From positions 1,098,895 to 1,162,894 of the forward strand of contig OZ241346.1 of the NCBI GenBank assembly GCA_965199875.1: a stretch of DNA of 64,000 nucleotides, written 5' to 3'. Both the position numbers and the translations under genes were made by a program. Shown piece after piece: positions 14,135 through 24,100 of the stretch; position 1 is the first letter of the stretch; every line of letters begins with the position of its first letter. The stretch comes from Candidatus Azotimanducaceae bacterium (GTDB taxonomy: Bacteria > Pseudomonadota > Gammaproteobacteria > Pseudomonadales > Azotimanducaceae). The notes under the pieces are model-generated. The model did no database searches. It was not told the DNA's origin and saw only the letters and a list, made by a program, of their open reading frames with translations.

Positions 14135-17100
14135 TGCCGGGGTGCGCGCATCGGCGCGGGGCGCTGGCGGGCTTGGCGCTCGCCTCGGCGGCGGTGCTGG
14201 CGCTGGCTGCCTCGGCGGCGGACGCGCCGGCCGTGTTCGCGAGCGCGCCGTCCGAGGGGATGCCGGAGCGCATCCTGGAGCCGGGCGGACGCGGACTCGC
14301 GCCTCGGCCGGACGCGCCGAGGCTGCGCATGGCGCGGCTCGACTTCGGGAGCATGGCGGCCGTGCGCGAGGCGGCGGCCAGCGGCCGGAGTGCCGCGGCG
14401 CGGCTGAACCTGTTCGAGGACGCCGAGTTCGACTGGATCGTGCGGCGCGCGGCCGCCACGGCGGGGGGCTACTCGCTGTCCGGGCCGCTGGCCGGCGTGG
14501 AGGCGGGCACGGCGACGCTGGTGGCGAACGGCGGCATGGTCGTGGGTTCCGCATGGACCCCGGAGGCGGCCTACCGCATCCGCACCGTCGGCCGAACGCA
14601 GATCGTGGAGCGCGTCGATCCTTCGCGGTGGCCGGCGTGCGCCGGCACCTTCAAGGTCGGCGCGGCGCTGCCCGGCGGCGCGACCGCGCGCGACTCTTCG
14701 GCGGCCGCGCCCGACGACGGCTCGGAGATCGACCTGCTGGTGGTCTACACGCCGCACGGGCGGCGGAAGGTCGGGGGGCACCGGGCCGTGCTGGCGGAGA
14801 TCGACCACGAAGTGGCGTGGGCGAACGAGGCGCTCGCGGCGTCCGGCGCAGCACACCGCGCGCGCCTGGTCGGGGCGGCCGAGGTCGACTACCGGCAGCC
14901 GGACGACACCCGCGCCCTCGCCCACCTGGCCATCCAGGGCGACGGCCACATGGACGAGGTCCACGCGCTGCGCGACCGTCTCGCCGCGGATGCCGTCGTG
15001 CTCAAGACGGCGTGGATCGGCAGCGCGTTCGGCTTGCTCTTCCCGGACAACCCCCGGTCGGTGGCATCGTTCGGCGCGACCGACGTCGGCGGCAATCCGA
15101 GCGCGATCGCGCACGTGCTGGGGCACGTCATGGGCGCCCACCACGACCGCGCCAACTACAACGGCAACCTCCCCTTTCCCTACAGCCACGGCTACGAGCT
15201 GCCGGACGTTCGATTCGGGCTCGAACCGCAGCCGGAGGACGAGGTCTTCCCGTACTGGACGATCATGGGATCGAGCGGCGGCAACATGCCGCGCTTCTCC
15301 AACCCCCGCCAGCGCTTCCGCGGCGTGGCGCTGGGCGTGCCGGGGGACGAGCCGTCGTCGCGGGTGGACGGCCCGGCGGACGCGGTGCGAAGCATGGACG
15401 AGACGCGCCGCCTGGTGGCGAACCACCGGCGCAGCGCTACGCGCTGCCGCTACCGGCTGTCGGCGCCGCCGGAGGTTCCGGCGGCTGGCGGGACGTACTC
15501 GCTGCGCGTGGAGGCGGACGCCGGCTGCGCGTGGACGGCGCGCGCCGCCGACGGCTTCACGACCGTCGCGGGCGACGCGGGCGGAGTCGGCGACGGCGCG
15601 GTGGAGTACCGGGTGCCGGCGAACGCCGGCTGGTCGCGCGAGGCGGCGCTGTCGGTGGCGGGGCGGATGCATGTGGCCGTGCAGCCGGGCGCCCGCCCGG
15701 TGAAGCCCGTGTGCGAGCGCCACCGGGTCGTCCGCGAGGCGCTCGAGGCCGAGCTGGGGGCGGGCTGCGCGGACATCGCCGCGGCGGACCTGGCGCGGGT
15801 CGCGGAGCTGGACATCGCGGACGACTTCGAGATCGAAGGCGGCGCCGGAGTGGCGCCCGGCGACTTCGACGGCCTGTCCAACCTGGGCTACCTGGACTTT
15901 ATCGTGCCGGCCGGCGAAACGCTGCTGGAGGGCACGTTCGACGGACTGTCCGGCCTGGCGTGGATGGAAGTGGGCGCCTACGGGCCCGTCCCGCTGCGCC
16001 CCGGATCGTTCCGAGGGCTGGAGAACCTGGTCTATCTCGTCGTCCACTCGGATGTGCATGGCGACGCCGCTCCACTGCCGCCCGGCACGTTCGAAGGAAT
16101 GCCGCGGCTGCGCGAACTGACGCTTTGGGAATCCCGCGAGACGATTGCGCCCGGCCTGTTCGACGGGCTGTCCAGCCTGGATCGCCTCGACGTGGTCGGG
16201 ACGGGCCTCGCGCATCTGTCGCCCGGGGCGTTCCGCGGCCTGCCCGGGCTGCGCCGGCTGGAAGTGAACAACAGCTTCGGAAGTTTGCACTTCGGGAGTT
16301 CGCCGCTCGAGCTGGAGGCGGGCGTGTTCGACGGGCTGCCGAGCCTCCGGGAGCTGGTGCTCGTCTCCATGGCGGGCGTGCCGCCGGGCCTGTTCGCGGG
16401 GCTGTCCGAACTCCAGGCCCTGTGGCTGGAGTACAACGCCTTCGACTCGCTGGAGGCGGGCGCGTTCGACGGGCTGTCGTCGCTCCACAGCCTCTTCCTC
16501 GACAACGACAACCCGAGGTACGCCCACAGCCCGCACCGGCACGAGCTGCCGACGCTGCCGCCGGGCCTGTTCGCGGGGCTGCCCCGCCTGGCGCTGCTGG
16601 ACCTCGGCGGCGTGGGGCTGCGCGAGCTGCGGCCGGGCGCGTTCCGCGAAGCGGGGGCGACGCTGAACGACCTCCGCCTCCCCAACAACCGTCTGGCGGC
16701 CCTCGACGCCGGCACGTTCGACGGCGCGCCCGGGCTGCGCGCCCTCCATCTGGACGGCAACCGTCTGGAAGAGCTGCCGCCCGGGCTGTTCGACGGCCTG
16801 CGCGAACTGCGGCTTCTGCGACTGAACGGCAACCGTCTGGAGCGGCTGCCGCCCGGGCCGTTCAAGAACCTGGCCTCGCTGAACAGCCTCGCCCTGCACG
16901 ACAACCGGCTCGCCGCGCTGCCGCCGGAGCTGTTCGCCGGCGCCGGCGCCGGACGGCCGGACGGCCCGCATCTGCTGACGCTGCACGGCAATCCCGGCGC
17001 TCCCTTCGCGTTGCCGCTGGAACCGGTCGTGGCGTCGGCGCCCTGGCGGCGCCCGGCGCGGGTCGGCGTGCGGATCGCCGAAGGCGCGCCGCTGGCGCTG

Positions 17101-21158: not shown

Positions 21159-24100
21159 TGCCGGGGTGCGCGCATCGGCGCGGGACGCTGGCGGGCTTGG
21201 CGCTGGCCTCGGCGCTGCTGGCGCTGGCCGCCTCGGCGGCGGACGCGCCGGCGCCGGCGGTGTTCGCGGGCGCGGCGTCCGAGGGGATGCCGGAGCGCAT
21301 CCTGGAGCCGGGCGGACGCGGACCTGCGCCTCGACCGGACCCGCCGGGGCTGCGCATGGCTCGGCTCGACTTCGGGAGCATGGCGGCCGTGCGCGAGGCG
21401 GCGGCCAGCGGCCGGGGCGCCGCGGCGCGGCTGAACCTGTTCGAGGACGCCGAGTTCGACTGGATCGTGCGGCGCGCGGCCGCCACGGCGGGGGGCTACT
21501 CGCTGTCCGGGCCGCTGGCCGGCGTGGAGGCGGGCACGGCGACGCTGGTGGCGAACGGCGGCATGGTCGTGGGCTCGGCGTGGACCCCGGAGGCGGAATA
21601 CCGCATCCGCACCGTCGGCCGAACGCAGATCGTCGAGCGCGTCGATCCGTCGCGGTGGCCGGCGTGCGACGGCACCTTCAAGGTCGGCGCGGCGCTGCCC
21701 GGCGGAGCGACCGCGCGCGTCTCTTCGGCGGACGCGCCCGACGACGGCTCGGAGATCGACCTGCTGGTGGTCTACACGCCGCATGGGCGGCGGAAGGTCG
21801 GGGGGCACCGGGCCATGCTGGCGGAGATCGACCACGAAGTGGCGTGGGCGAACGAGGCGCTCGCGGCGTCCGGCGCGGCGCACCGCGCGCGCCTGGTCGG
21901 GGCGGCCGAGGTCGACTACCGGCAGCCGGACGACACCCGCGCCCTCGCCCACCTGGCCATCCAGGGCGACGGCCACATGGACGAGGTCCACGCGCTGCGC
22001 GACCGTCTCGCCGCGGATGCCGTCGTGCTCAAGACGGCGTGGATCGGCGGCGCTTACGGCTTGCTCTTCCCGGACAACCCCCGGTCGGTGGCATCGTTCG
22101 GCGCGGCCGACGTCGGCGGCAACCCGAGCGCGATCGCGCACGTGCTGGGGCACGTCATGGGCGCCCACCACGACCGCGAGTCCTACAACGGCAACCTCCC
22201 CTTTCCCTACAGCCACGGCTACGAGCTGCCCGACGTTCGACGCGACGGGGTCTACCCGTACTGGACGATCATGGGATCGAGCGGCGGCAACATGCCGCGC
22301 TTCTCCAACCCCCGCCAGCGCTTCCGCGGCGTGGCGCTGGGCGTGCCGGGGGACGAGCCGTCGTCGCGGGTGGACGGCCCGGCGGACGCGGTGCGGAGCA
22401 TGGACGAGACGCGCCGCCTGGTGGCGAACCACCGGCGCAGCGCCGCGCGCTGCCGCTACCGGCTGTCGCCGCCGCCGGAGGTTCCGGCGGCTGGCGGGAC
22501 GTACTCGCTGCGCGTGGAGGCGGACGCCGGCTGCGCGTGGACGGCGCGCGCCGCCGACGGCTTCACGACGGTCGTGTCCGGATCGCGCGGGACCGGCGAC
22601 GGCACGGTGACGTACCGCGTGCCGGCGAACGCCGGCTGGGAGCGCGAGGCGGCGCTGGCCGTGGCCGGGCGGATGCGCGTGGCCGTGCAGCCCGGAACGC
22701 GTCCGGTGAAGCCCGTGTGCGAGCGCGGCGCGGCGGTCCGCGAAGCGCTCGAGGCCGAGCTGGGGGCGGAATGCGCGGACATCGCCGCGGCGGACCTGGC
22801 GCGGGTCGTCGAACTGGTACTGGGTCACATTCAGTTTCGCCTGGGGGCCCGGCACGCCCGGGTGGCGCCCGGCGACTTCGACGGACTGTCCAACCTGGGC
22901 TACCTGCGCCTGCGCGTGGAGGTAGGCGAAACGCTGCTGGAGGGCACCTTCGACGGGCTGTCCAGCCTGGCATGGCTGGAAATGACCATCCACGGGCTCG
23001 TCCCGCTACGCCCGGGCTCGTTCCGGGGGCTGGAGAACCTGATCTATCTCGTCGTCCACTCGGGTGAACGCGGCGACCTCCACGACGCCGCTCCACTGCC
23101 GCCCGGCACGTTCGAAGGAATGCCGCGGCTGCGCGAACTGGTGCTTTGGGACCGCATCCGCGCGACGATCGCCCCCGGCCTGTTCGACGGGCTGTCCAGC
23201 CTGGATCGCCTCAACGTGGTCGGGGACCTCGCGCATCTGCCGCCCGGGGCGTTCCGCGGCCTGCCCGGGCTGCGCCGGCTGGAAGTGGACAACAGCTTCG
23301 GGGGTTCGCCGCTCGAGCTGGAGGCGGGCGTGTTCGACGGGCTGCCGAGCCTCCGGGAGCTGGTGCTCAACTCCCTGGCAGGCGTGCCGCCGGGCCTGTT
23401 CGCGGGGCTGTCCGAACTCCAGGCCCTGTGGCTGGAGTACAACGCCTTCGACTCGCTGGAGGCGGGCGCGTTCGACGGGCTGTCGTCGCTCCACAGCCTC
23501 TTCCTCGACAACGACAACCCGAGGTACGCCCACAGCCCGCACCGGCACGAGCTGCGGACGCTGCCGCCGGGCCTGTTCGCGGGGCTGCCCCGCCTGGCGC
23601 TGCTGGACCTCGGCGGCGTGGGGCTGCGCGAGCTGCGGCCGGGCGCGTTCCGCGAAGCGGGGGCGACGCTGCGTTTCCTCCGCCTCCCCAACAACCGTCT
23701 GGCGGCCCTCGACGCCGGCACGTTCGACGGCGCGCCCGGGCTGCTCGCCCTCCACCTGGACGGCAACCGTCTGGAGGAGCTGCCGCCCGGGCTGTTCGAC
23801 GGCCTGCGCGAACTGCAGCTTCTTCGACTGGACGGCAACCGTCTGGAGCGGCTGCCGCCCGGGCCGTTCAAGAACCTGGCCTGGCTGAACAGCCTCGCCC
23901 TGCACGACAACCGGCTCGCCGCGCTGCCGCCGGAGCTGTTCGCCGGCGCCGGCGCCGGCCGGCCGGACGGCCCGTACCTGCTGACGCTGCACGGCAATCC
24001 CGGCGCTCCCTTCGCGTTGCCGCTGGAACCGGTCGTGGCGTCGGCGCCCTGGCGGCGCCCGGTGCGGGTCGGCGTGCGGATCGCCGAAGGCGCGCCGCTG

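Follow-up and report, generated by a model that had tools for sequence, protein, structure and literature searches.

Valine in place of the general-base glutamate in the metzincin-like domains of three tandem leucine-rich-repeat proteins: probable loss of proteolysis in a bacterial gene array

The 64,000-nucleotide (nt) stretch of contig OZ241346.1 analysed here (the window; G+C 70.8%) comes from an uncultured, high-GC gammaproteobacterium, Candidatus Azotimanducaceae bacterium, and carries a tandem array of three intact paralogues, A, B and C (Table 1), whose products are predicted to be secreted or surface proteins combining a metzincin-like domain with leucine-rich repeats (LRR) and immunoglobulin (Ig)-like parts. 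In all three the general-base glutamate of the metzincin HExxH motif is replaced by valine. The reading favoured here, which we hold to be probable rather than assured, is that these Val-type domains are derived metzincins that have lost their general base, would be dead as proteases and may now serve as non-cleaving modules. The two parts of this reading differ in strength: that proteolysis is lost or severely reduced has good support by analogy, since the engineered E520A mutant of the protease CpaA is inactive, and a new binding role for the dead domain is plausible.

The motif was found as an identical 36-nt stretch, CACGTGCTGGGGCACGTCATGGGCGCCCACCACGAC, at three places on the forward strand; it had 0 matches in 100 shuffles, lies in frame in all three genes and encodes HVLGHVMGAHHD. 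A Glu to Val change in three intact paralogues, with GTG as the codon, is what an earlier reading made from the letters alone (the sequence-only reading) had claimed, and it was borne out in each copy. The three zinc-ligand histidines, the glycine and the aspartate are kept in A, B and C, and H327, H331, H337 and G334 of A occupy columns that are 93-100% conserved in the family alignments, whereas the general-base position is Val (GTG) in the three copies versus Glu in 73/73 and 135/135 other homologues. The same reading had listed the His, Gly, Asp and Met-turn residues as retained, which holds for every copy (TIM is kept in all three and the Met column is 97% conserved), but the Met-turn sequence that it gave, YWTIMG, is present only in A and C (FPYWTIMGSSGG and YPYWTIMGSSGG) and becomes YRTIMD, within YRTIMDSALG, in B (FSYRTIMDSALG). 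At 18770-18810 B also bears a dense cluster of changes by the Met-turn (P372S, W375R, G379D, S381A and G382L relative to A), and C is without seven codons just upstream of it (FGLEPQP of the RFGLEPQPEDE found in A and B), a gap at which it agrees with the Glu-type sibling described below. Since the copies are paralogues, 85-95% identical as proteins, the three valines reflect shared ancestry or gene conversion and not independent events.

Alignment, profile searches and modelling all indicate that the His cluster is the metzincin active site, as had been proposed. HVLGH aligns under HE[LIV]GH both in 80 homologues from a word-indexed search and in 150 representatives from an exhaustive search (about 225 homologues overall), and the downstream TIM and RFSNP columns align too in both sets. 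A family profile searched against the Protein Data Bank (PDB) matched CpaA, ADAM17, snake-venom metalloproteinases, BMP1 and the astacins, myroilysin and fragilysin. An AlphaFold model of residues 60-445 of A (predicted local distance difference test, pLDDT, 84.6; predicted template modelling score, pTM, 0.88) gave a confident active-site helix, residues 324-332 (AIAHVLGHV) being helical with pLDDT of at least 90. The Foldseek matches of this model include CpaA (7e-12) and the prodomain plus catalytic domain of ADAM17 (6e-9), together with pro-fragilysin and adamalysins, and the adamalysin-type alpha/beta fold was recovered with a Foldseek probability of 1.00 for CpaA, ADAM17, fragilysin, ADAM8, ADAM33 and snake-venom enzymes. 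The N-terminal beta-rich domain of A, with strands at 5-102 of the model (pLDDT ~90), aligns with the prodomains of fragilysin and ADAM17, the alignments with pro-fragilysin, and with the prodomain and catalytic domain of ADAM17, spanning 300-478 columns.

On sequence and model, A, B and C can therefore be placed in the metzincin clan (MA(M)), with borderline standing in the Pfam family Reprolysin_4 (PF13583, M12B-like; cut-off 22 bits). At full length A reaches 21.3 bits, B 23.5 and C 22.1, and the isolated Val-type domain 25.4 bits, versus 37-41 bits for Glu-type siblings; across the Pfam Reprolysin models the Val-type domain lies 12-29 bits below those siblings. The NCBIfam models for CpaA (NF033511) and Mep72 (NF052434) gave 35-39 bits only, against cut-offs of 750 and 645, and the relation to MEROPS M72, CpaA and Mep72 is one of superfamily level and not of equivalog membership.

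With Glu the rule among the homologues, the closest relatives included, the Val state is derived and confined to a narrow lineage rather than family-wide. Whether the change was lineage-wide had been left by the sequence-only reading to alignment, and all but two of the homologues have Glu: the column is Glu in each of the 73 sequences of the first set and in 151 of 153 motifs of the representatives, the only exceptions among the latter being P0083 (HQVGH; Gln, CAA) and P0108 (HFLGH; Phe), both intact, full-length single genes outside arrays. P0083 sits in L003 and P0108 in L005, where the latter adjoins a DUF772-family (transposase-like) gene with toxin-antitoxin-like genes near. The window copies fall with P0083, P0001 and P0084 in a clade of 100% bootstrap, the branching inside which has only 30-42% support. 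Separate losses in P0083 and in the window are favoured because the codons differ (GTG versus CAA), each being one step from GAG/GAA, and a loss common to both may be the case. Glu would on these sequences have been lost at least three times among ~150 representative lineages of the LRR-metzincin family, so that its loss is uncommon but not unique. Further Val-type relatives were not recovered: a degenerate DNA pattern specific for Val had 0 matches in metagenome contigs, and a clade profile had 600 pattern matches there with no relative confirmed. A genome-contig scan with the N-terminal half of A gave only a 31%-identical Isosphaeraceae locus (L002), and exact look-ups of P0002 and of protein A gave no match.

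Val-type and Glu-type versions of the same protein coexist in the clade. A European Nucleotide Archive (ENA) metagenome contig, L004 (88.5 kb, 72% GC), from a near-identical relative, carries a Val-type gene, L4V, which is 95% identical to A and has HVLGHVMGAHHD with GTG, and directly after it, at 6337-9957, a Glu-type gene, L4E, which is 83% identical to A and has HELGHLMGVDHA with GAG. An orthologue of L4E with a frameshift (92.8% identity) is P0002, found in an NCBI genome, whose Glu or Val state is ambiguous from the protein alone and was read via the L4E DNA; its out-of-frame tail, RTSWGT, fits CACGAGCTGGGGCAC of L4E, which gives TSWG in the +1 frame. In L001 (P0001), which is syntenic with the window, the tail of a giant repeat protein is followed by a protease-LRR gene with HELGH and GAG, and in L006 (P0084), a 2.27-Mb contig of a more distant relative, the same giant gene is followed by three tandem paralogues, all with HELGH. 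The Glu-type genes of L001 and L006 point to an ancestral array that carried Glu throughout. The first array gene of L004 is C-like, and at 6190-6337 the Val-type gene, which has no stop of its own, reads through into a remnant of the giant-protein tail (...RSDNGTVRHSLPKSGG). P0091 has the same fusion to the giant-protein tail at its C-terminus, and its presence in both argues that the array has been rearranged repeatedly.

What the sequence-only reading missed is that the valine belongs to a divergent cassette (synonymous divergence, dS, ~0.5 in the core) that coexists with a Glu-type cassette in the relative. Far from being a lone substitution, it lies in a deeply divergent unit covering most of the catalytic domain. 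Compared in 150-nt bins, A, B and L4V differ by 0-9 nt per 150 across gene nt 451-1200, with C joining them only up to gene nt ~1050, and over their common stretches of the cassette the Val-type copies differ from L4E by 18-67 nt per 150. Fixed amino-acid differences between the two types number 60 at 242 sites of the protease domain versus 5 at 385 sites of the LRR region; in the cassette core (amino acids (aa) 286-360) dS is 0.50 and non-synonymous divergence (dN) 0.42, and in the LRR and C-terminal parts dS is 0.03-0.09. Val-derived changes cluster between residue ~293 and the beginning of the active-site helix (T293A, T302L, S303F, L322P, T323S, T324A, F325I and E328V), and the lower Reprolysin scores accord with them. 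Divergent catalytic cassettes are found among the all-Glu copies of L006 too, which makes cassette diversity a property of the arrays; the Val type is one cassette among them, with the general base lost in addition.

Outside the cassette, B and C are identical in their first 300 nt and differ there from A, and C is nearly identical to L4E at nt 1051-1200 and 1351-2250, the other variant being common to A, B and L4V. C is thus a mosaic, with a Val-type active-site helix and Glu-type-like sequence from gene nt 1051 on, and this mosaic pattern implies repeated gene conversion among the copies. The presence of Val in every copy had earlier been put down to either selection or gene conversion; the second is upheld by the mosaic, and the first is only marginal (see below).

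The general-base glutamate of metzincins polarises the zinc-bound water and shuttles a proton. A change of GAG to GTG would have put Val in its place within HExxH. On the retained sequence and the predicted structure the Val-type domain should fold and probably bind zinc, and, since it lacks the means to polarise the catalytic water, its proteolysis would be abolished or lowered by orders of magnitude. The analogy is with CpaA, the nearest homologue of solved structure, whose E520A mutant cleaves none of the wild-type substrates tested (PMC7542363), a result that also agrees with the earlier statement that this Glu is essential for catalysis. Duplication and gene conversion would have spread the cassette across the array until, in the window, it filled all three intact genes, and the near relative would have retained a Glu-type gene right after its Val-type gene from an ancestral array that was presumably all-Glu. 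The most likely role of the domain would be that of a non-cleaving structural or ligand-holding module next to the parts that bind, LRR and Ig, and it might cooperate with an active Glu-type paralogue or compete with it. The repurposing as a binding module that the sequence-only reading had put forward would be of this kind.

Other explanations have to be set against this. That the valine arose as a sequencing or assembly artefact, or as a consensus error copied across collapsed repeats, is hardly credible: the three copies are indeed nearly identical around the motif, but the same GTG stands in the L4V gene of an independent assembly, beside a GAG sibling, and within a cassette of dozens of other fixed differences. 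An assembly artefact is ruled out by that gene. Very unlikely, too, is a domain that is still an enzyme, its water activated by another residue or by the substrate, or its zinc used in a different reaction. The zinc triad and cleft elements are conserved, and general-base mutants of some metzincins, such as the E198 mutants of matrilysin, keep about 0.05-1% activity; however, Val cannot serve as a base, the motif has no new acidic residue, CpaA E520A gave no cleavage at all and literature searches turned up no precedent. A more elaborate proposal, which we consider improbable, takes the array as a set of interchangeable active Glu-type and dead Val-type cassettes moved by gene conversion, by which surface LRR proteins would be switched between cleaving a ligand and only holding it, as a natural substrate trap or as a decoy. 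Donor sequences would then come from the truncated copies that flank the array, and the Val-type domain would be a selected zinc-containing binding module, acting with or against a Glu-type paralogue.

Neutral loss deserves fuller treatment, although we judge it somewhat unlikely. Proteolysis would have been dispensable, the LRR and Ig parts would carry the function and the domain would be a vestige copied by gene conversion and heading for decay or deletion. Such decay would be in keeping with dN/dS (omega) of ~0.8 when the Val cassette is compared with the Glu cassette (0.8-1.0 for the catalytic core) and of 0.5-1.0 among A, B and C, with the reduced Pfam scores, with the change cluster by the Met-turn of B, with the truncated copies without protease domain in the same locus and with a lineage that may be young. 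Yet the other family-conserved residues are kept as well as in the Glu-type sibling: of 46 columns with conservation of 85% or more across 133 background homologues, the Val-type copies deviate at 3, as do L4E and each of the L006 copies, with a background mean of 2.7 and 6 in P0083. Nor is there any frameshift or stop in three genes of 3.5-4.9 kb, in which every A/B indel has a length divisible by three and the indels of C add up to an intact frame, and the two other Glu-less members are intact stand-alone genes. The four Val-type copies have omega ~0.47 in the protease domain, with P = 0.03-0.07 for omega <1. Three-point estimates calculated by hand for each branch, for which L001 or L003 served as outgroup, gave omega ~0.8 on the Val and the Glu branches alike, so that high dN/dS is no peculiarity of the dead domain and may stem from diversifying selection or from distortion by gene conversion. 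In the LRR region (equivalent parts of each copy) dN/dS is ~0.85-1.0 among paralogues and up to 1.6 for A versus L4V, values that would fit diversifying selection at the binding surface or a gene-conversion artefact.

A number of caveats must be applied to the reading of the Val-type domain as a dead protease kept as a non-cleaving module, and they weigh against it. The signal of purifying selection after the loss is marginal, the ratios among A, B and C are high in every domain, the branch estimates are equally high on both sides, and relaxed constraint is inseparable from diversifying selection by paralogue dN/dS. The Val-type lineage may be young (dS 0.01-0.04 for A versus L4V) and was seen in two very close genomes only, the window and L004, and the survey of copies extended over the 64,000-nt window rather than the genome. 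Some hydrolytic activity, residual or altered, may persist in the domain. If there is no autoproteolysis, the prodomain-like domain may remain attached and obstruct the cleft, contrary to binding through it. Between a selected non-catalytic role and a young loss that has yet to decay, the data are undecided.

A is organised as a signal peptide, the prodomain-like beta domain, the Val-type metzincin, a small Cys-flanked beta module, an LRR solenoid (LRR_8, 171 bits) and an Ig-like C-terminal region that closes with PRFLRGWRLTLLDGGG. B has the same architecture, and C adds a second LRR plus Ig-like module at ~24572-26050. Tandem leucine-rich repeats are present in all copies (LRR_8 171-270 bits), and third-position GC content (GC3) is about 0.9 or above in the three reading frames. 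TGATG stop/start overlaps join the giant gene to A (14132-14136), A to B (17650-17654) and B to C (21156-21160), which suggests translational coupling of the four as one operon. The motif PRFLRGWRLxLLD, followed by Gly or acidic residues, stands at the C-termini (17590-17649, 21096-21155 and 25990-26047, and 6350-6411 in the upstream remnant) and was also found in L003, L004 and L006; it occurs in 8 of 147 representative homologues, all of the close clade. It could be a candidate sorting or anchoring signal, and to our knowledge it matches no such signal already described.

The giant protein upstream is rich in divergent InlB B-repeats, and its conserved C-terminal tail (...ECxSDNGTVRxCSLPKxGG) is followed by a protease-LRR gene in both L001 and L006 too, from which the giant protein and the array emerge as a conserved unit. 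Of the two truncated copies, the upstream remnant has neither signal peptide nor protease domain, and its orthologue in L004 (P0079 and the next open reading frame, ORF) keeps the last third of the protease domain; the downstream fragment resembles the Val type at nt 501-600 and runs up to the beginning of a GCS2-like gene. Both could be gene-conversion donors. Around the array lie ordinary chromosomal housekeeping genes, which encode DinB, CoaE, NAD kinase, an IorB-like oxidoreductase and a MATE transporter, and the best named relatives of DinB are at 67-72% identity in metagenome-assembled genomes of Gammaproteobacteria and Pseudomonadales, with metagenome matches at 93-98%. At 30626-32806 on the reverse strand, a pyridine-nucleotide-disulphide oxidoreductase domain and AIR-synthase-related (SelD-like) domains are fused in a single ORF. 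An Rfam scan of the window gave no match, and promoter and terminator scans at the array ends were uninformative.

Table 1. Positions of the array genes, their domains and motifs, and the adjoining features in the window.
Feature	Positions	Strand	Description
Giant protein, 2535 aa	6527-14134	+	>20 divergent InlB B-repeats (Pfam Flg_new_2); Cys-rich segments; stop overlaps A start (TGATG)
Paralogue A	14134-17652	+	1172 aa; from ORF and translation
Prodomain-like beta-rich domain of A	14311-14628	+	aa ~60-165; precedes catalytic domain
Val-type cassette of A	14584-15333	+	Gene nt ~451-1200, aa ~151-400; about 700 nt
HVLGHVMGAHHD of A	15112-15147	+	Val codon GTG 15115-15117; aligns with HELGHNMGLxHD of homologues
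Met-turn YWTIMG of A (Met378)	15253-15270	+	T and M columns 93-97% conserved in family
LRR region of A	15724-16953	+	Pfam LRR_8, LRR_4, LRR_1
Paralogue B	17652-21158	+	1168 aa; architecture as A; 95% identical to A
HVLGHVMGAHHD of B	18633-18668	+	Val codon GTG 18636-18638
Paralogue C	21158-26050	+	1630 aa; N-terminal architecture as A, plus extra modules
HVLGHVMGAHHD of C	22139-22174	+	Val codon GTG 22142-22144
Remnant paralogue	4365-6414	+	5'-truncated, frameshift near 4985; retains just the LRR and C-terminal region; 56-62% identity to A
N-terminal fragment of further copy	26192-26901	+	aa 1-236; frameshift near 26755; ends before active site

Pseudopeptidases that have lost only the general base are well known in animals (ADAM7, ADAM29), and the attraction of this locus is the Val/Glu sibling pair and the cassette dynamics rather than the substitution alone. 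The relative holds a natural, very recent Val/Glu pair in adjacent proteins of about 83% identity, which could help in asking what a dead metzincin domain adds to a bacterial surface LRR protein, and the array illustrates how gene conversion can fix a loss-of-function cassette in every tandem copy. In annotation A, B and C should not be labelled active M12 metallopeptidases.

Among known systems the best profile and structure matches are CpaA of Acinetobacter (an M72 metzincin glycoprotease in MEROPS; PDB 6o38) and Mep72 of Pseudomonas; both are metzincins that bacteria secrete, and both have the extended HExxHxxGxxH motif. The engineered E520A change of CpaA hits the same position as the natural Val of A, B and C; unlike them CpaA has four glycan-binding repeats, a dedicated chaperone, no LRR and its Glu in place. 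The Glu-type siblings (L4E; the three L006 copies, with HELGHVMGIAHE or HELGHLLGIAHE; L001/P0001; P0084) share with the window copies their architecture, the synteny with the giant InlB-B-repeat gene and the C-terminal FLRGWRL motif at 60-83% identity, but keep the catalytic Glu and have the higher Reprolysin scores given above. P0083 (HQVGHVLGLNHA) and P0108 (HFLGHNMGLVHQ) are, like A, B and C, natural Glu-less LRR-metzincins, the former in the same clade, and differ in their replacements and in being single genes; P0083 has additionally lost the Asp after the third His. Neither the review that defines pseudopeptidases (PMC11266112) nor literature searches turned up a bacterial pseudo-metzincin. 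By that definition, which the same review applies to ADAM7 (HQLGH) and ADAM29 (HHLGH), the domains of A, B and C combine clear homology to a peptidase family with replacement of a catalytic residue by one unable to do the chemistry. As in A, B and C, ADAM7 (HQLGHNLGMQHD) and ADAM29 (HHLGHNLGMNHD) keep the His ligands, Gly, Asp and Met-turn with only the general-base Glu replaced, and their domain sits in a multidomain extracellular protein in which other modules mediate binding. They differ in being eukaryotic and distant in sequence, in having Gln or His rather than Val, in having disintegrin, Cys-rich, EGF and transmembrane parts versus LRR and Ig, and in having no tandem array or cassette exchange. 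On the analogy with CpaA E520A, A, B and C would lack peptidase activity and, in how they work, be the bacterial counterpart of a pseudopeptidase of the ADAM7/ADAM29 type.

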